Source of the DNA: a virus
Taxonomy: Duplodnaviria > Caudoviricetes
Length of the DNA stretch: 64,000 nucleotides
IMG/VR virus record: IMGVR_UViG_3300031555_004710
Span: 160,001 to 224,000 of that record
Reading direction: 5' to 3' (one strand)
Under the pieces are notes generated by a model. That model was not told where the DNA came from. It did not search any database and worked only from the letters and a program-made list of their open reading frames with translations. Position numbers and translations under genes: made by a program. Shown piece after piece: positions 2,825 through 60,522 of the stretch (within the stretch, counting starts at the first letter, position 1; each line of letters starts with the position of its first letter).

Positions 2825-3698
2825 CATTGAAGGAATTGATGCAGTTGGAAAAGAAACTGTATCTAAAGCTTTAGAGGAAAGATTAAGCGAGAAAGGATAT
2901 CGTGTAAAGCGTATATCCTTCCCAAATTATGATGGTTCTATTGGTAAATCTATAAAAGAAATTCTGATGGGAGCATGCGGTAGTGCACCTTCATTAGACC
3001 CAGATTTAATGGGACCATTTTATACAATGGATAGATTATCTTATTTTAAATGTAATATAGATGACTTGATTGATAATTACGACTATGTAATTATGGACAG
3101 AAGTTTCTATTCTAATTTAATGTATCAAGCTGCTAAATTCTATATATCTGGAAAGAATAAACCAATACAAATTTCAGACGATATTACAAAATATGGAATG
3201 AATTCCAGTACTTTAACAACAGTATTTGATTGGATTTCACGAAATTATCAATGGGAAATACAAGAGACTGGATTATATCGTTGCGATAATATGTTTACCT
3301 TTGTATTATCCATGGATGAAGAAAGTAGTAAAAAGCAATTAAGTAATAGAAAAGAAGTAGATACTAACGAAACAAGTCGTTCATATTTAGAAGAATGCAA
3401 AGAATTTATTACTAAAATACTATCAAATGATTATCGATATAATATTATGAAATTTATTGATGAATACGCATTTGCAGTTAGACTTTGTAATAGAAGCAGA
3501 TATATTCAGCAATATATGCATAATGCTGCTTTTTATTATCTATCAAATGTGGACTCTATTGAAGTTAAACATGTCGAAAATCCTAAGGATATTCCATCAG
3601 CTACAAATGAAGTTGTTAATAAAATACTTGACATGATGTACGACAATGATATGTTTGATGATGATTATGAAGGAGATGATGCTAATGGCGAAAATTGA
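2811..3698 (+). CDS. tmk: thymidylate (dNMP) kinase family
   Basis: N-terminal INIEGIDAVGKET P-loop, FPNY, DR motif (IMDRSFYSN); ATG 2811 after GGAGG. Confidence 0.85.
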   Translation: MRVINIEGIDAVGKETVSKALEERLSEKGYRVKRISFPNYDGSIGKSIKEILMGACGSAPSLDPDLMGPFYTMDRLSYFKCNIDDLIDNYDYVIMDRSFYSNLMYQAAKFYISGKNKPIQISDDITKYGMNSSTLTTVFDWISRNYQWEIQETGLYRCDNMFTFVLSMDEESSKKQLSNRKEVDTNETSRSYLEECKEFITKILSNDYRYNIMKFIDEYAFAVRLCNRSRYIQQYMHNAAFYYLSNVDSIEVKHVENPKDIPSATNEVVNKILDMMYDNDMFDDDYEGDDANGEN

Positions 3699-5694
3699 TT
3701 TTAATGGACATCCTAAGAAAAGTAAAGAAGAGCTAGATAAATTATATCCTCCTGATTTACTTATTATTATAGAAGAAGTTTTATCTTCCAAGAAATCATT
3801 TCAGTTAATATTTCAAGATTTAATTGATATTATGAAATATGGATTTGAAGATGAGAATGTTAGAAGACGTCCAATATACTATAAATTCAAAAAGCGTGAA
3901 AAGAAACAGCATGTTATGCAACTAAATCATATGATATCTAATCTTATATTTTGGAATCCATTAATTGAAGTTGATAAAGTAGAATTATTGGATGAGAGTT
4001 GGATATTTGATTTTAGTAAATTTAATACAAATACTCTTATGGATTATATCAACACACGTTTACTTCCGGTATTTGATACAGACTTTGCTTCACAAAATGT
4101 AATGGTCGATGAAATTTATCATAATATAATTTCGATATCTCATGCATTTTGTCTATTGATGGGTATGGGAATTTCGTTATATGATTTACATCAATTAGAA
4201 TTGAGAGACCCTGAAATATCTCATATAATGAGAGATTCTGTAGACCAGTCTCTTGAACCACATGAAGTAGAAGAGCAATTAAATGATAGAAATAAACGAC
4301 TAATACAGAAATTGATCGAAGACCCTATTGGAAATGACTATAAACCATTCTTTGCTAGTGGTACTGGATTAAAGGCTGCACAGTTTAGGGAATATATTGT
4401 AAGAATTGGATTTAAAGCTGATATCAACGGTAATACCGTTCCTATTCTTATAGATAATAACTTCCTATTACATGGATTATCAAAGCCTTCATTCTTATAT
4501 CTAAATGCGATATCTGGTAGAAAGAGTTTGATATTATCTAAACTTTCAATGGGAGCTCCTGGTAGTTTCTCTAAGAAGCTCACGATGAATTCAATATCTT
4601 CTACTTTAAGAGAAGACTATGAAACATGTGATAGTATTCTTACAATTGATTACTATATTAAGACTAATGAGTTCTTAAAGTTATTGAATGGAAGATATTA
4701 TTATGATGCCAGAGGTAATATGCAGCTTCTTGATTATGATAAAGATAAACATTTAATAGGTAAAGTAGTTAGATTTAAAAGTCCAGCTACATGTAATAGT
4801 AAGAACGGTGTATGTAAACATTGTTATGGACACATGTTTGATATTAATAAGAGCTTGGCTAGTGCTGGTGCATATGCTTCATTGAAGATAAGTGAACCTA
4901 TAGGTCAGGCAGTATTATCATCAAAACATAGTCAGACAACTTCATCAAACGAGCTGAAGTTCAGTGAAGGATATGATGAAGTATTTGAAACTACATCCTC
5001 AATGGTTACACTTAGAGAAGATTCTGATTTAGATGCAGATGTTTATATCAGATTGAATAATGTGTCAGTAGAAGAAATGGATGACTCTGAATTCTATTAT
5101 GTTGAATCATTTGATTTAGTTGAAGCTAATGGTAATTTGATAAGACATATTGAGGAAGAAAATAAGGCTAAGTTCTACTTAAATGATGGATTAATCTCAT
5201 TATATAAACAGAAGTTGAAGATGAAAAATAGTGAACCAATATTCTCATTAGATGAAATTGATGACGAAACTTTATTCACTATAGAAGTAAAGAATAAAGA
5301 GTTAACTGAACCTTTAAAGATATTTACTAAAGTTCTTAATACACATGAGCATATGGGTGCAACTAATTTGTCTGATTTATGTCAAATCTTTGCAGAAAAA
5401 TTAATTCTTATGGGAATTAAATATGAATTAGTTCATGCGGAAATGATAATAAGATCATTAATTAGAAAGAAGAGTAATATATTAGAGTTCCCTGATTTTG
5501 GAATGGGTGGAAATCTAAATGATTATCAGATTCTTAAATTGGATGAAGCTCAATTATATAATCCTAGTGCACTGGTTAGTATGCCTTATGGATATCTAAG
5601 AAGACAGTTATTATCAACTGAATTATATGAGAAAACTCAAACTGGAGCATTGGATGCGTTGTATGTTTCTGATTTGAGTAAGTATATTGATTAA
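3685..5694 (+). CDS. non-virion RNA polymerase beta' subunit, C-terminal part
   Basis: Zn motif FKSPATC..GVCKHCYG, bridge-helix-like GRKSLI..PGSFSKKL, trigger loop SEPIGQAVLSSKH. Confidence 0.85.
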   Translation: MAKIDFNGHPKKSKEELDKLYPPDLLIIIEEVLSSKKSFQLIFQDLIDIMKYGFEDENVRRRPIYYKFKKREKKQHVMQLNHMISNLIFWNPLIEVDKVELLDESWIFDFSKFNTNTLMDYINTRLLPVFDTDFASQNVMVDEIYHNIISISHAFCLLMGMGISLYDLHQLELRDPEISHIMRDSVDQSLEPHEVEEQLNDRNKRLIQKLIEDPIGNDYKPFFASGTGLKAAQFREYIVRIGFKADINGNTVPILIDNNFLLHGLSKPSFLYLNAISGRKSLILSKLSMGAPGSFSKKLTMNSISSTLREDYETCDSILTIDYYIKTNEFLKLLNGRYYYDARGNMQLLDYDKDKHLIGKVVRFKSPATCNSKNGVCKHCYGHMFDINKSLASAGAYASLKISEPIGQAVLSSKHSQTTSSNELKFSEGYDEVFETTSSMVTLREDSDLDADVYIRLNNVSVEEMDDSEFYYVESFDLVEANGNLIRHIEEENKAKFYLNDGLISLYKQKLKMKNSEPIFSLDEIDDETLFTIEVKNKELTEPLKIFTKVLNTHEHMGATNLSDLCQIFAEKLILMGIKYELVHAEMIIRSLIRKKSNILEFPDFGMGGNLNDYQILKLDEAQLYNPSALVSMPYGYLRRQLLSTELYEKTQTGALDALYVSDLSKYID

Positions 5695-21812: not shown

Positions 21813-23589
21813 ATGTAATATAGAATACGTTAGAGTAGAAAAGATACCACTTGACTTAGAGTGTTGGCATGATATTGCTACTGGCAATGGTATTAGACTT
21901 ACTTCAGTTGAATCTTTTGATAAAAAGAATCAGAAGATATATAGAGGGCTTCAGTCAGAATTCTTTGGTTCAGACTTTTCATCAGACTGGGCTTTTAAAG
22001 AAAGATATAGTTGTAAATGTGGAAAATATATGGCTAAAGCATATTCTGGAATGGTATGTGATTTCTGTGGCACTAAAGTAGAATATCACGATATTGACCT
22101 TAAGAAAACTGGATGGGTAATTCTTGATAAGTTCGAAGTTCTTTCTCCTATATATTCGGCAAAACTTACAGAAGCGTTAGGTAAGGCTGATGGAGAATCT
22201 GTACTTAGAATGATACTTAATCGTAGATATCATGAAGAAGGGGTAATTGAGTACTCTGAAAAAGAATTAACAAACATAAAGAAGCATCCATTTTCTCAAA
22301 GAGGTATGCAGTGGCTTAGAGAGAATATAATGGAAGTATTAGACTTCTACGAAAAGAGAAAACCTGGTAAACAAAAACTCTTTGAAGAACTTAGAAATGA
22401 ACAGGCTAATATGTGGACACATTCTATTCCTATTTACAGTTCTCTTTTAAGAACAGAACTTCCTGGAGAAAAAGGTTCTAAAAACTTTAAGCTTAAAGTA
22501 AACACTCATTTCAAATCAATCATTCGATTAGTAAATGCAATTAATGATATAGACCCAGATGATATGGATTATATCACATTAAATTCTATAGATATATATC
22601 TTGCAGGAATTCAAAAAGAAATAGACCAAGTATTTGATGTTACTTTTAAAGACCTTACAGATAAAACTGGTATTATAACAAGTAAGATACTCGGTGGAAG
22701 ATATAACTTTAGTTCAAGAGATATTATAGTTCCTGATAGTGGAACTTTAAGGTCTGATGAAGTTATAATAGGATATATACCATTTCTTGAATTATATAGA
22801 TATGAAATTCAGAATGAATATAGAAAAATACATGGCTGTACTCCAGCACAAGCAAATACTGCTTGGAAAAGAGCGACTAATCATTTCGATCCTAAGATTT
22901 ATGCTATAATAGAGCATATGGTTAATGACCCTGAATATAGAAGATATTTAGGTGTATTGATTAACAGAAATCCTAGTATAAACTATGGATCATTTGATTA
23001 TGTTAAAATCGTTGGTGTTAAGAAAGATATCTCGGATAAAACTCTTACAATACCAACACACATAATAGTTCCAATGAATGCCGACTTAACAAATCCGTTG
23101 AGGTCGGGTACAGTAGTAATATTGTACATGTATCTAGGTGAACGCTTAACCAGCGGTGTCTATTCTATAGGCTAACGGTAGAAGTTAGATAAGCATTATA
23201 GATGTCGAATACGCTTCGTAAGAAAAGCTACGGTCCATTTATAATATGGATAGCAGCCAATACCGTGCCAAGCTTCTATATACATATAGTTGAAGGTGTA
23301 GAGACTAATTATTAGGATATATGATGGAAAGCATATATTCGAAGCGCCTAGCTCCTATGTAAATAGGATGAAGATATAGTCCACATATTATTGAAAAATA
23401 GTAATTATTATTGTCGATGGCGATTTGCTTAATGTATTTCGTATTATTGGAATGGATTTCCAGAAACGATTTGAGAAAAATATGAATCCAAGATACAATT
23501 TATTTGTATCCAGAGCAGATGGTAAAGTTAACAAAGAGGTCGTACCAGTTAAGGATGAGCTTGTCTGTTTCTGGGCATTTAATAATTAA
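21796..23589 (+). CDS. non-virion RNA polymerase beta' subunit, N-terminal catalytic part; spliced join(21796..23086,23414..23589), 488 aa
   Basis: Zn finger CKCG..CDFC, ILGGRYNFSSR, NRNPSI; splicing restores AAT GCC GAC T|TC GAT GGC GAT = NADFDGD; exon 2 open to TAA at 23587-23589. Confidence 0.93.
23087..23413 (+). ncRNA. group I self-splicing intron (subgroup IA-like), ORF-less, 327 nt
   Basis: 5' exon CCGACU pairs with IGS GGUCGG (23102-07) with U.G at the splice site; P10 CCGUUGA/UCGAUGG; P3 23134-40/23345-51; P4 ACGGUA/UACCGU; P7 GACUA/UAGUC; terminal G at 23413. Confidence 0.93.
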
Positions 23590-39840: not shown

Positions 39841-40989
39841 TTAATTATAAAGCCATCTTAATTTAAATACATTTCCTTTATCAGTTTTACAGTGGAAAAT
39901 TACAGGTCTTCCGACAAAGTTCTTACCAAGGAATGTATCAGCATTATATATTGGAACTGTATGTTTAGTATAGTCGAATGGATTTAATTTTTTATCTTTA
40001 AAAGCCCCATTCATAGCAGTATAGCCTAATGAATTATATTGAAAATCCATAAGAATATATCTATCCATTTGCTCACATACAAAGTAAGAAAATGTAATAG
40101 AAGTTTTAGTTTCTGCACCACTATTTCTATTAAAACTTAAATCGGACATTGGTACCGCAGTTGGAACACAACCTGTATATTTAGCCCAATATACTATATT
40201 TTCTCCAGTTTCATCTACGATGAAATCATATATACTTGTAGCATAGTCCAATGCATTATATTGTAAATATCTATCTTTTGGACGGAAAATATTTCGCATT
40301 ACTTTATCTTGATAATATATCCATGCATAGAATAATTTATGAATAGAATAATACTTATCTTCCCTGAAACTAAGATCGAAAGAACCTCCTGTTAGAGATT
40401 CTATAGCCGATGTAGTATATGGTATTGTGTATTTAGTATATGGCTGAACTATTGCATTTTGTTTAATTGAATAGTCTGGTAGTTGTAAAGATTCTACTCT
40501 TGTAGTTATATATGGCATAAATGAATGAAGTGGTAACGGTGTTCCATCAATTGATGTGTTCGATGATTTTAACCCCGCGAAATCGCTTGTTAATGATGCA
40601 ATTATTTCTGGGTGCCATTGAGCAAGATATGTAAAATAAGGATCTACATGTACTCTACTCTCTGAACTTAAAGTTATTTTTCCATCCGTACACAAATCCG
40701 AATTTACTAAATATAAATCTGGTCTACACATAAAAATATAATGTCTACCAGATGGTAATTCATTTTCTAAATCGACAGAATAAAATCTATCAAAATCTAC
40801 CCAAAATTGTTTATGAGATTTATCTTCTGTACCATCATTCATCTGAAGACGCACATTCATATATCTATTATGTTCATTTTCAGTGAAATTTGAAGAAAAA
40901 TATCCAGGTAATAATCCATATTCTCTATTTACTTTACTATTAGATACTTGATACGATGTCGATTTAAACAACCAATCGCGTAGAGCCAT
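39841..40989 (-). CDS. tail tube / baseplate-like structural protein
   Basis: IFMCRPDL, FDLSFRED, YWAKYTGCVPTAVP pattern of tube-fold jumbo-phage proteins; AACA-N7-TA upstream. Confidence 0.5.
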   Translation of the reverse strand: MALRDWLFKSTSYQVSNSKVNREYGLLPGYFSSNFTENEHNRYMNVRLQMNDGTEDKSHKQFWVDFDRFYSVDLENELPSGRHYIFMCRPDLYLVNSDLCTDGKITLSSESRVHVDPYFTYLAQWHPEIIASLTSDFAGLKSSNTSIDGTPLPLHSFMPYITTRVESLQLPDYSIKQNAIVQPYTKYTIPYTTSAIESLTGGSFDLSFREDKYYSIHKLFYAWIYYQDKVMRNIFRPKDRYLQYNALDYATSIYDFIVDETGENIVYWAKYTGCVPTAVPMSDLSFNRNSGAETKTSITFSYFVCEQMDRYILMDFQYNSLGYTAMNGAFKDKKLNPFDYTKHTVPIYNADTFLGKNFVGRPVIFHCKTDKGNVFKLRWLYN

Positions 40990-41189
40990 TTATTACTCCC
41001 CCTTTCTATATTTTGGGATTCTAATCGTTCATTATCAAAATTGTTAAAATATAGAAAAATAGAAATTAATTTTCAATCATATATTATTTTAATGGTGTAG
41101 AGTAATAAATTTGAGTTTATTAAAAATGGTTAATTTAGAGACAGAAATCTCACTGTCAATTAAAAGCGATTATGAAAGGAGATATAGCA

Positions 41190-42341
41190 ATGAAATTCTT
41201 CACAAAAGTTATTAAATTTGTAAAGAAAGCATTTCGTGCAATTGCAAAAATGTTTAAAGATAAAAATCCTGTTGAAGTAATCAATGATGTTACAAAAGCA
41301 TCTGTTGCACTAGCTACAACTGGATTAGCTTTATATACAGGAGTTAATGCTATTAGAGTGCATTTTGCTCCATCCACAAAGAAGAATAAAAATTACAATG
41401 GTAAATCTGCTCACGAAATAATATTTGAAAATCGTAATGCTGGTTCCATTGATGAAAAACTTGCGACTATTAGAAAGAATAATTCTAGAATAGGCAAAAA
41501 GCATTCCACCACAATAAAATCAGAGGATTTGAAAGTTCTCGAATCTATTGCAAAAACCAGAAATAGTTTCTTCCAGAGTCTGTCTGCGGAAGAGCAAATG
41601 AATGTCCTTGAAATGGAGGATTTTGATTTTAAAGCATACTCAAAAGAGATGAAAAAGAAATCACGTTTTTCATTATTTGGGAATAAAAAGTGTTCTAAGA
41701 AGCTAGGAGTTTCATCTACTAATAAAGCTTTTCGTGAACCTGTAAATTATGGATTCTTTAATTTCATTTTACAGCCAATTGACGACTTTATTCATTGGAT
41801 AAAGAATGACCCAGTTCCAAAGAAGGTTCCTCAGATTCAAGTAATTGAGCATCCTGAAATTCCTAATGTTCCTTGTGAGACTGCATTAGATCTAGTTTCT
41901 ACTGCAAGAAATTTAGAATCCTATTTGAGTCATAACAAAACATTATCATCAGAATTTAATGTCACAACTCCAGCAGAGAGTGAAGAACAACAAATTCTCG
42001 CAGATGAAATATTTAGACACAAATCTTTATCAAAATTCAAAAGGGCGGTGAATAGATGTATGGCACAGTCTAATTTTAATACTCCAAACATCTTTGATTT
42101 AATGGACGATGACAAAAATTTTAAGAAAAAGAAAAAGAATAAAAAGAAACATTCCTACGATGATGATTTTTCGTTCATGGATAATGACAAACCTAAGAAG
42201 AAAAAGAAAAAAGGTATGAGTAAAGAAGATCGTGAAGCTGAAAGCATGGCTGATAAACGAGCAAAAGAATTATATAGATACCATTTAGAAAAAGCAATGA
42301 AAGGCGAATTTGACAGAAAAGGATATGGATTTGACTTTTAA
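41190..42341 (+). CDS. Lys-rich hypothetical early protein with hydrophobic helix
   Basis: AAAGGAG SD; TATATTAT at 41080; poly-K tracts. Confidence 0.7.
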   Translation: MKFFTKVIKFVKKAFRAIAKMFKDKNPVEVINDVTKASVALATTGLALYTGVNAIRVHFAPSTKKNKNYNGKSAHEIIFENRNAGSIDEKLATIRKNNSRIGKKHSTTIKSEDLKVLESIAKTRNSFFQSLSAEEQMNVLEMEDFDFKAYSKEMKKKSRFSLFGNKKCSKKLGVSSTNKAFREPVNYGFFNFILQPIDDFIHWIKNDPVPKKVPQIQVIEHPEIPNVPCETALDLVSTARNLESYLSHNKTLSSEFNVTTPAESEEQQILADEIFRHKSLSKFKRAVNRCMAQSNFNTPNIFDLMDDDKNFKKKKKNKKKHSYDDDFSFMDNDKPKKKKKKGMSKEDREAESMADKRAKELYRYHLEKAMKGEFDRKGYGFDF

Positions 42342-42461
42342 TTTGAAATCTTAGGAATATTTGCAAATATCCCTTACAGGATAATAAGAGAGAACTATCA
42401 GAGTTCTCTCTTATTTTTTATTTCGTAATAATAAATTTTTTTATTGATATATTATTATTAT

Positions 42462-42825
42462 GAGTAAGTAAGATTATAATGGTCGGGTGACTCTATAAGT
42501 TCTTGCGGAGATAAACATCGGTAAGATTGGAAATCTTGGGATGTCCGGGGAATGACTAGATACCATTATCTTAAGTGCAATAATCTATCCACCCAATGTC
42601 GATACCAGGCAGAGGGACTAGATTAACACCGAGGGTATTCTTATAATGTTAATTTATAAGAATCATTCAATCAATAAACGAAAATAGTCGATAATAAGTT
42701 GGCAGCTTGCATTGACCACCATACTCAATGCAATACGGAAACCAACTTGACAATCTTCTATAAGTCCATCGAATATTGAAAGATGATTCAAGTAGATTAA
42801 TATTTAGAATACTCTCTTACTGCTC
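42462..42825 (+). ncRNA. putative structured ncRNA of about 365 nt, unknown family
   Basis: Early promoter at 42448; ORF-less; 5'/3' ends pair (42462-73 with 42815-25); several internal helices. Confidence 0.65.
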
Positions 42826-42855
42826 GAAAATCTAATCTAATTTATTTTTTTTTTC

Positions 42856-42899
42856 AAAAAAATATATGAAGCGAAATCACGGGATTTCGCTTCATATAT
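42856..42899 (-). terminator. intrinsic terminator
   Basis: ATATATGAAGCGAAATC/GATTTCGCTTCATATAT 17-bp stem; A7 on the plus strand. Confidence 0.85.
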
Positions 42900-42999: not shown

Positions 43000-43299
43000 C
43001 TATAGTTCATCTATATGAGGACCAGTAATAGTACCATACCAAGCTACTTTACCATCAGTAGTCGTCTGTTTACCATAAACTTCCTCACAAATATATTCTT
43101 GCTCATCTTCAACTTTAATAACTGATTCAGTGTTATTATTTTTTTCTTTTCTTTCCTTTAATGCTTCTATTCCCATTTCTAAAGCTTCGATATATTTTTT
43201 GACACCATGATCTTGATATCTCTTTTCATATCCTCGTTTTATAAAATCGAGAATATAAATAGCCATATCTTCATTAGGGCACATTTTATATTCACTCAT
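43000..43299 (-). CDS. hypothetical protein
   Basis: GGAGGT SD; EALEMGIEAL motif common in Firmicutes phage small proteins. Confidence 0.7.
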   Translation of the reverse strand: MSEYKMCPNEDMAIYILDFIKRGYEKRYQDHGVKKYIEALEMGIEALKERKEKNNNTESVIKVEDEQEYICEEVYGKQTTTDGKVAWYGTITGPHIDEL

Positions 43300-43317
43300 A
43301 TAGAATACCTCCTATAA

Positions 43318-43659
43318 TTACCACCATGAATAAAATTCTTGATTCTCTTCATTACCTCTATAAGTCTCAACTTCTTCATTTCTTACAATTTTTCCATCCT
43401 TAAGAATAAATCCTTTTTTACCAGAGTTTCTGAAATCATATATTTTATATGCTTCAGCGTATACCTGCTCTTCAATACCCAGTCTCCTTGCAAAAAGTTG
43501 CAATTCATAAACTTGGTCAAGTAGCCATGATGAATGATTCTTATCTTTTTTATTATAAAACCATTCATCTGCTCGCTTTTGTAAATCTGCAATCTCTTTT
43601 GCAAATTCTTTTATGATAGTTTTTCTTCTTACTAAAAATTTCATGTAAATAACCTCCAT
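43318..43659 (-). CDS. hypothetical protein
   Basis: 113-aa ORF; true start probably the second Met after GGAGG. Confidence 0.7.
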   Translation of the reverse strand: MEVIYMKFLVRRKTIIKEFAKEIADLQKRADEWFYNKKDKNHSSWLLDQVYELQLFARRLGIEEQVYAEAYKIYDFRNSGKKGFILKDGKIVRNEEVETYRGNEENQEFYSWW

Positions 43660-59533: not shown

Positions 59534-60522
59534 GAGTAGTAGAATAAATATATTGGTTTTTAATAAGTTTTACATATATAGGCGTCGTGTATCTATTACT
59601 CCATGTTGATGAAAACTTTAGACGAGGATGGCATGCTCGTTGACTATGATGGTGATAGGGAAAGTCACATAGTTGCACTATAAATATAATGGCCGCATGT
59701 GGCGTGGATCAAACGTGGAGGGTCCGTCGTTATATTTATATAGTGAGCTCGGTTCTATCGTGGACTATCACGTAGGACAGCATATTGATAGATAGGCTAG
59801 GTCGGTCATGTAATGTAGCTCAGTTTACTATATAGTCATAGAATAGACCTGAAAGTCTGAGCGGGCGAATATTGAGTGGATAATCTATAATTATCGATGA
59901 GGCGAAATATCCCATGACAAAGGATGAGGTGTGGTCAAGGCAGAGAATAACTCTAGGCCTTGGTGTAATTGAAATTATAGTTATTCACTCGATTAGTAGC
60001 TTTAATTACCTTATGATACTTTTATAATACTTATTGCCACATTTGAGTATTATTTAAGTTATAAATAGATACCTGAAGTTGCCTAAAGTCTGAAATAAAC
60101 ATTTCAGAAGACAAAGCACGCCAAGCTAAGCGAGTATCGGACTTAGTGGGTTACCGAGTTTCCTGATTGGATAGTATACTAAATGACCCTGTTGTACGAA
60201 ATGGTATCCATCAACTATATTAAAAAATAAATTTATTTAAATATTATGTACTTATAGTTGATGAAAATACTCGGCGCCATAATAGTGATATTATGGGAAA
60301 GTGACTTCTGAGGGGAGGTCACTATATATAAAAACTGTATATAATTTACTTCTTCCCACCTCACTTTTATATATCGATACTATATAAAAGTATTATACGT
60401 TATGATTTCCTTCTTCCTGGAATTTTATCCCTATTCCAGTGTTTAATCATAATGTATTATTAAATGGTAAATTATATACAATATAGTTTTAGAGAAAGTA
60501 TAAAGGGTGCTTTCTCTTTTTT
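59534..60522 (+). ncRNA. putative very large (about 990 nt) structured ncRNA, unknown family
   Basis: Early promoter 59520-34; no credible ORF; raised GC; more than 15 helices; terminator 60491-60522. Confidence 0.75.
60491..60522 (+). terminator. intrinsic terminator closing the large ncRNA
   Basis: AGAGAAAGTA-N7-TGCTTTCTCT plus T run. Confidence 0.8.

Follow-up and report, generated by a model that had tools for sequence, protein, structure and literature searches.

The stretch of DNA analysed here, referred to as the window, comprises 64,000 nucleotides (bases 160001-224000) of a virus genome record in IMG/VR, a single contig of 236,671 bp with 29.7% GC and an estimated completeness of 94%. 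Its tail-tube protein gene, located at 39841-40989 (Pfam Phage_TTP_15), encodes a product that shares 24-30% identity with virion proteins of AR9, PBS1, vB_BpuM-BpSp, Staphylococcus jumbo phages and phiR1-37, which places this uncultured phage among the AR9-like jumbo phages as a distant member. The stretch occurs in DNA runs from animal faeces and gut, including bovine gut, and the runs listed as containing it include no RNA run. Four DNA runs contain contigs of this phage or of a very close one that provide no informative variation. The two ends of the contig share an identical sequence that includes an early promoter (genome positions 1-112 and 236512-236671, with promoters at 98 and 236609), which points to a terminal repeat or to an assembly overlap of a circularly permuted genome.

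The locus of interest lies downstream of a gene for a 389-amino acid protein (41172-42341), whose intrinsic terminator on the plus strand (42383-42415, a 14-bp stem followed by a T-run) forms the left border of the unit. A T-run is present directly upstream of the corresponding promoter in relatives as well. The right border is the terminator of convergent minus-strand genes (43000-43659), which is located at 42862-42899 on the minus strand and consists of a 17-bp stem and a T-run, and therefore no gene on the same strand directly follows the unit. In agreement with an earlier sequence-only reading that described the segment as lacking an ORF, the gap between the two terminators carries no plus-strand ORF of at least 30 amino acids. 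The GC content of the segment is 35.9% compared to approximately 30% in its flanks, and GC skew exhibits no turning point or other feature at this site. ARAGORN identifies only tRNA-Pro and tRNA-Gln genes in the window and in the genome, and these are located 9 kb from the unit.

The tail-tube protein has 113 relatives in a large protein collection, and twelve contig look-ups led to loci of related phages. A search with an RNA HMM yielded full-length homologues of the segment at seven loci (L003, L005, L124, L125, L127, L129 and L130), whereas the copy at L128 is identical to that at L127. The seven homologues are always found on the strand of the early genes, begin with the same bases as the window copy and share 69-75% nucleotide identity with it, and the family as a whole has a length of 365-430 nt. 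The neighbouring genes exhibit similar values, with 68-77% for the tail-tube gene, 65-75% for the 389-amino acid gene and 63-81% for a gene encoding a 977-amino acid protein. The RNA is therefore conserved as strongly as the adjoining structural genes. The longest plus-strand ORFs vary among the homologues and are absent from the window, such that no reading frame is conserved. HMM and covariance-model searches indicate that the RNA is present as a single copy in the genome.

The early promoters of AR9 are used by its virion RNA polymerase and conform to the consensus AAATATATATTAT-6N-G(+1) (PMC5312081). The segment is preceded on the plus strand by a promoter of this type at 42448-42461, which includes TATATTAT at 42448-42455 and a 6-nt spacer, followed by G42462. 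This arrangement matches the AR9 early consensus, in line with the early promoter assigned by the sequence-only reading, and an annotated AR9 early promoter has the same form, TATATTAT-6N-G. The motif is retained in eight of eight homologues. Genome-wide, there are 35 copies of TATATTAT-N5-TG compared to 5.0 in shuffled sequences, a sevenfold enrichment, and 27 of the 35 have an SD-led ORF within 160 nt. The copies without such an ORF include the locus described here and that of a second ORF-less unit of approximately 1 kb. Because the promoter architecture is shared with the early units of AR9, the virion RNA polymerase presumably transcribes the RNA as well, and with the timing of those units. 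In AR9, the early promoters that have been described precede protein genes (Lavysh et al. 2017, PMC5312081), whereas here the promoter precedes an ORF-less RNA.

The sequence-only reading also noted that the 5ˊ end (TGAGTA...) resembles that of the 1-kb unit. The likeness exists, but not as a sign of kinship between the two RNAs. Specifically, the TGAGTAA start also occurs at early promoters of protein genes (+1 at genome positions 129397 and 206805), which makes it a feature of the promoter and start region. In most homologues, another conserved element, TTCGTAA, is found about 20 nt upstream of TATATTAT (window 42420-42447), and it also precedes the early promoter whose TATATTAT begins at genome position 221199 (+1 at 221213). 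This sequence may be an upstream promoter element.

Structurally, the RNA proper extends over approximately 364 nt on the plus strand, from the predicted +1 at G42462 to the end of a closing helix, P1, at 42825. The plus strand folds with a predicted free energy of -107.3 kcal/mol (z = -5.66), a value that none of 100 shuffled sequences match, whereas the fold of the minus strand is weaker (z = -2.95). A consensus fold was derived with RNAalifold from an alignment (A3) of eight sequences, the window copy and its seven homologues, among which there are close pairs (L003/L124 and L127/L129). In this model, P1 and three domains termed A, B and C are arranged on a four-way junction. The 130 consensus pairs are formed by standard base pairs in 91.6% of alignment cells, compared to 40-44% when the 3ˊ partner is slid by one to three columns, and 64 of them exhibit compensatory changes, compared to 13-25 in the slid controls. 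Each homologue folded singly adopts the same architecture. The strand of the RNA is set by invariant G-U pairs that form on the plus strand. Structural conservation, whose absence from relatives the sequence-only reading had named as a refutation, is evident in that the fold is kept in eight lineages with many compensatory changes. All the helices named in that reading are located where it had placed them and belong to the eight-homologue consensus, most with covariation.

The 5ˊ strand of P1 (GAGTAAGTAAGA, 42462-42473) pairs with 42815-42825, as had been noted, and P1 covaries in eight homologues, with 10 pairs that are 83-94% standard and include GC/AU exchanges. P1 thereby joins the first transcribed bases to the 3ˊ end and creates a closed molecule. 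In addition, the predicted +1 is the first base of this helix (GAG with CUC), which fits a molecule beginning exactly at G42462. Domain A (42476-42569) is closed by ATAATGGT/ACCATTAT (42476-83/42562-69), a helix with 98% standard pairs, and continues through an internal rod (42492-42508/42544-42560) with 15 pairs, eight of them covarying, to a hairpin with a UGGAA-type loop (42516-42543). Five relatives carry an extra hairpin of about 40 nt at 42512-42515, where six of the 11 pairs covary, which suggests that this region tolerates insertions.

Domain B (42574-42630) is formed by three stacked helices, including TAATCTA/TAGATTA (42581-88/42618-25), with an invariant tandem AA/GA internal loop. 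Its 7-nt terminal loop (42601-42607) is GAYACCA in seven of the eight sequences and differs only in L005. In an alignment of this domain alone (A6, model R2), 98.3% of cells are paired compared to 30-42% in slid controls, 10 of 22 pairs are compensatory, and none of 500 shuffles score as high.

Domain C (42633-42814) is a long rod whose middle helices vary and whose distal core is conserved, and this rod forms in every homologue folded alone. The core (42676-42777; alignments A4 and A7, model R1) remains 97.4% paired when the more distant L007 sequence is added, and none of 500 shuffles reach its fraction of paired cells or its covariation score. Its invariant features are a TTGAC junction and an internal loop formed by AAAA and UAAGYCCAU (42760-42768, inside the block 42755-42768). 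At the end of the rod, a distal module (42696-42748) is composed of a basal helix, an invariant CAGCU/AUAYGGAAA internal loop and a covarying hairpin of 8-9 bp with a loop of 9-11 nt, which together correspond to the AAGTTGG..TTGCATTGA/TCAATGCAA..CCAACTT hairpin. Overall, approximately 150 alignment columns are invariant at about 70% overall identity, many of them in junctions and internal loops. A search for pseudoknots among compensating pairs of unpaired columns gave no run of adjacent pairs, and the invariant loops have no antisense targets in the phage genome.

The closing helix of domain C (42633-42642/42805-42814) is where the sequence-only reading had seen a possible switch, in which 42637-46 pairs either with 42806-14 or locally with 42654-63. 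The local alternative is significant in the window only (z = -3.1), with values of -1.5 to +0.75 in the seven relatives, whereas the long-range helix is retained through compensatory changes in the window and in L005. These observations argue against a conserved switch.

A T-run at 42845-42856 likely marks the 3ˊ end region of the transcript, and the poly-T run of the sequence-only reading is thus present. In the window this run begins 18 nt after P1 and does not have the form of a canonical intrinsic terminator. A T-run is found 20-200 nt past P1 in every homologue, in some cases after an additional hairpin. The transcript probably continues past P1 to the T-run. In some homologues, P1 and the T-run are separated by an extra 3ˊ hairpin or domain that is closed by a TATAGTRAT/ATYACTATA helix, as observed on the minus strand of L127 (about 3000-3105) and of L129 (about 3780-3930), where the domain is GC-rich and about 130 nt long.

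More diverged forms of the RNA are found at L007/L008 and L220, in phages whose tail-tube proteins are 57-59% identical. These RNAs are 310-330 nt long, have paired ends, and occupy the equivalent site behind the same promoter. The L007 and L220 RNAs keep only the distal module of domain C, which is matched by model R1 at 5399-5449 in L007 (E = 1e-6) and with E = 0.28 in L220. As the sole part kept in both RNAs, it is the foremost candidate for a functional centre of the molecule. At L001 the RNA is absent from the site, which instead carries a different AT-rich leader with a weak match to model R2 (E = 0.06), and there is no copy within 6 kb at L219. The RNA therefore appears to be dispensable for some relatives.

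Additional collections were searched for further members of the family. In IMG/VR, single-protein queries with the 389-amino acid and tail-tube proteins returned no relatives, and a scan with a 14-mer and a gapped pattern gave chance matches only. A gapped pattern of the module gave 86 matches among JGI metagenome contigs, none of which are real by HMM. Among GTDB genome contigs, the domain B pattern had no match and the module pattern had 69, all by chance; the best two of these (L259 and L282) lie inside a membrane-protein gene that is TspO-like by eye. The INPHARED phage collection yielded no blastn match to the RNA, and the two sub-domain covariance models, R1 and R2, detected no homologue in the cultured phages AR9, vB_BpuM-BpSp, vB_StaM_SA1, LPJP1 and phiR1-37 (best E above 1).

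The RNA was also compared with known families. At gathering thresholds, Rfam 15 annotates two tRNAs only in the whole window. At E<=10, searches with 661-, 111- and 413-nt segments returned no family that overlaps 42462-42829, and the L003 homologue likewise has none; the single match in a homologue is to a sequence-only lncRNA model (E = 0.9). The same permissive mode detects a group I intron of this phage, located within its RNA polymerase gene (23151-23403, plus strand; Intron_gpI, 36.4 bits, E = 9.4e-8), which served as a positive control. The intron scores below the gathering score of 50 and is thus missed by a default scan.

The ARAGORN and Rfam searches concur with the sequence-only reading that signatures of tmRNA and RNase P RNA are lacking. 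Specifically, tmRNA is rejected because ARAGORN finds only tRNA-Pro and tRNA-Gln and no ORF is conserved, and RNase P RNA is rejected because there is no model match at E<=10 and the order of elements misfits. With regard to the P4 helix of RNase P, the AAGYCCAU stretch resides in the 3ˊ domain with no conserved complementary strand after it. A group I intron is rejected on the basis that there is no Intron_gpI match at E<=10 and that the RNA has its own promoter and lies between terminators, outside any gene. No model match was obtained for 6S RNA, which is also excluded by the four-way junction and by internal loops of about 4-9 nt per strand in domain C, or for GOLLD and ROOL in the window or in six related loci. 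For this genome specifically, a riboswitch or cis-acting leader is disfavoured, as convergent genes follow the RNA and only the window sequence has a significant alternative hairpin. Resemblances to hairpin-ribozyme loops, the 11-nt tetraloop receptor, the k-turn, the sarcin-ricin motif and the T-box double T-loop were dropped by eye because the strands misfit the consensus of each. In summary, the RNA represents a new and uncatalogued family that is so far found only in an uncultured clade of AR9-like gut jumbo phages.

T4 encodes two stable RNAs of about 120-140 nt, species 1 and 2 (rnaC and rnaD), that are co-located and co-transcribed with the phage tRNAs. The RNA described here is likewise phage-encoded and resides beside tRNAs in some relatives. 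However, it is much longer and unrelated in sequence, and the window copy does not adjoin tRNA genes.

The genes that follow the RNA differ among relatives. Convergent genes lie downstream in the window and in L125, where no gene on the same strand comes directly after the RNA. Small ORFs on the same strand follow in L003, L124, L127, L129 and L130, and in L005 the RNA is followed by a T-run and then by six tRNA genes. In L129 and L003, tRNAs are located 1.3-2.2 kb downstream. The tRNA arrays in the early region after the RNA have five to six genes and occupy 2747-3390 in L005 and 1719-2637 in L129, both on the minus strand. None of the downstream ORFs or tRNAs in the relatives is preceded by a separate early-promoter match. 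The RNA thus heads an early region that is otherwise variable.

Judged from sequence and comparative data, the segment 42462-42825 is probably a stand-alone gene for a compactly folded, trans-acting non-coding RNA of approximately 365 nt. The closed P1 helix, the signals resembling terminators and the fact that the unit stands alone in two phages favour an independent trans-acting RNA. The virion RNA polymerase would transcribe it during the first minutes after infection, the transcript would end at the T-run, and the resulting stable RNA would act in trans. As a mechanism, we tentatively propose that it might bind a protein of the host or of the phage, as a scaffold or as a decoy, a model that we hold with limited confidence. 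The host take-over or anti-defence function suggested by the sequence-only reading is speculative. In the scaffold model, contact would be made through the invariant distal portion of domain C, formed by the AAAA/UAAGYCCAU loop and the CAGCU/AUAYGGAAA module, and the remainder of the RNA would be a structural chassis that tolerates insertions. After a scaffold, the next most likely mechanisms are a ribozyme and an RNA-only assembly, to each of which we assign a small probability.

An unlikely alternative to a trans-acting RNA is that the segment forms a structured leader or attenuator that acts in cis on an early operon and controls read-through into downstream early genes or tRNAs. In the relatives where same-strand ORFs or tRNAs follow with no early promoter of their own, a role as a leader or first cistron is possible, and a weak hairpin with a T-run before the next gene could cause attenuation. 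The position of the RNA at the head of a variable early region thus keeps this explanation as a minor rival. However, the RNA is equally conserved in the window and in L125, where convergent genes and a bidirectional terminator region follow. P1 defines a molecule that is closed from its first transcribed bases to its 3ˊ end, the downstream genes differ among relatives, and the sole candidate for an alternative pairing is not conserved.

It is distinctly unlikely that the RNA is a new large ribozyme, either for tRNA or other RNA processing or for self-cleavage or ligation. Its size of 365-430 nt, its several domains and its invariant columns in junctions and internal loops would suit such an activity, as would its location directly upstream of the L005 tRNA array and near the arrays in L129 and L003. 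In addition, the AAGUCCAU stretch resembles the 5ˊ strand of P4 in type B RNase P RNA, a likeness that serves as a lead only. Against this explanation, no Rfam ribozyme family matches at E<=10 in the mode that detects the group I intron, the P4-like strand has no conserved partner, the RNase P order of elements is not followed, and the window phage has just two tRNAs that are 9 kb distant.

The closest analogues by context, although not relatives, are GOLLD (RF01998) and ROOL (RF03087), which are phage- or prophage-associated, multi-domain ornate non-coding RNAs often found near tRNA genes (PMC5737381). GOLLD and ROOL are reported to form RNA-only complexes (bioRxiv 10.1101/2024.12.08.627333). 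The RNA of the AR9-like phages is similarly phage-borne and ornate, it is adjacent to tRNA genes in some relatives, and in L005 it heads the six-tRNA array. A multimeric RNA-only assembly with biology like that of GOLLD and ROOL but an unrelated sequence might therefore be envisaged, and the closing helix of domain C is self-complementary on both strands in most homologues. We nonetheless consider this very unlikely. The window and L005 copies are not palindromic at this position, yet pairing between the two strands is kept by compensation, which argues for an intramolecular helix. Moreover, the RNA matches neither model and is smaller, with 365-430 nt compared to about 580 and about 800 nt for GOLLD and ROOL. 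It also has a different architecture, lies behind a virion-polymerase early promoter, and is confined to AR9-like gut jumbo phages.

Finally, the absence of the RNA from L001 could be taken to mean that the segment is non-functional, as a decayed gene, an origin or primer transcript or a chance fold, but this is extremely unlikely given conservation equal to that of structural genes, massive compensatory variation, no conserved reading frame and a GC skew with no turning point at the site.

To our knowledge, large and intricately folded RNAs of bacteria and phages are rare, and those that have been studied are ribozymes, ribonucleoprotein cores or, more recently, RNA-only cages. The family described here is well supported and of tractable size (365-430 nt), and its defined predicted start, its clear four-domain fold (P1 plus A, B and C) and its small invariant core offer an obvious entry point for mutagenesis. 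The AR9-like phages in which it occurs encode RNA polymerases of their own and form a clade about which little is known. If the proposed trans-acting role is correct, an RNA that an injected polymerase produces ahead of all phage proteins would represent an immediate-early effector of a new kind.

Another early promoter in the window precedes the ORF-less unit of approximately 1 kb (59534-60522, plus strand), which has a predicted folding energy of -273.8 kcal/mol (z = -7.6) and no Rfam match at E<=0.1. HMM and covariance-model searches of the genome revealed no second copy or paralogue of the 365-nt RNA and no module shared between it and the 1-kb RNA. The presence of at least one more large structured RNA in the genome suggests that functions at the RNA level are a theme of this phage group. 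A bolder proposal, which we regard as doubtful, is that the 365-nt RNA, the 1-kb early RNA and a late RNA of about 760 nt from another part of the genome are means by which the clade acts on its host by RNA rather than by protein, with the 365-nt RNA being a catalytic or self-assembling molecule made by the virion polymerase in the first minutes.

Downstream of the RNA, the L003 and L129 loci share the start of an SD-led mini-ORF on the minus strand (about 4060-4130 and about 3180-3420, respectively). The common sequence is GGAGGAATG, followed by C in L003 or T in L129, and then CAAGACCTTGGGC. The L129 mini-ORF has 11 codons, and about 160 nt of more GC-rich sequence come after it; this may be another leader or small RNA.
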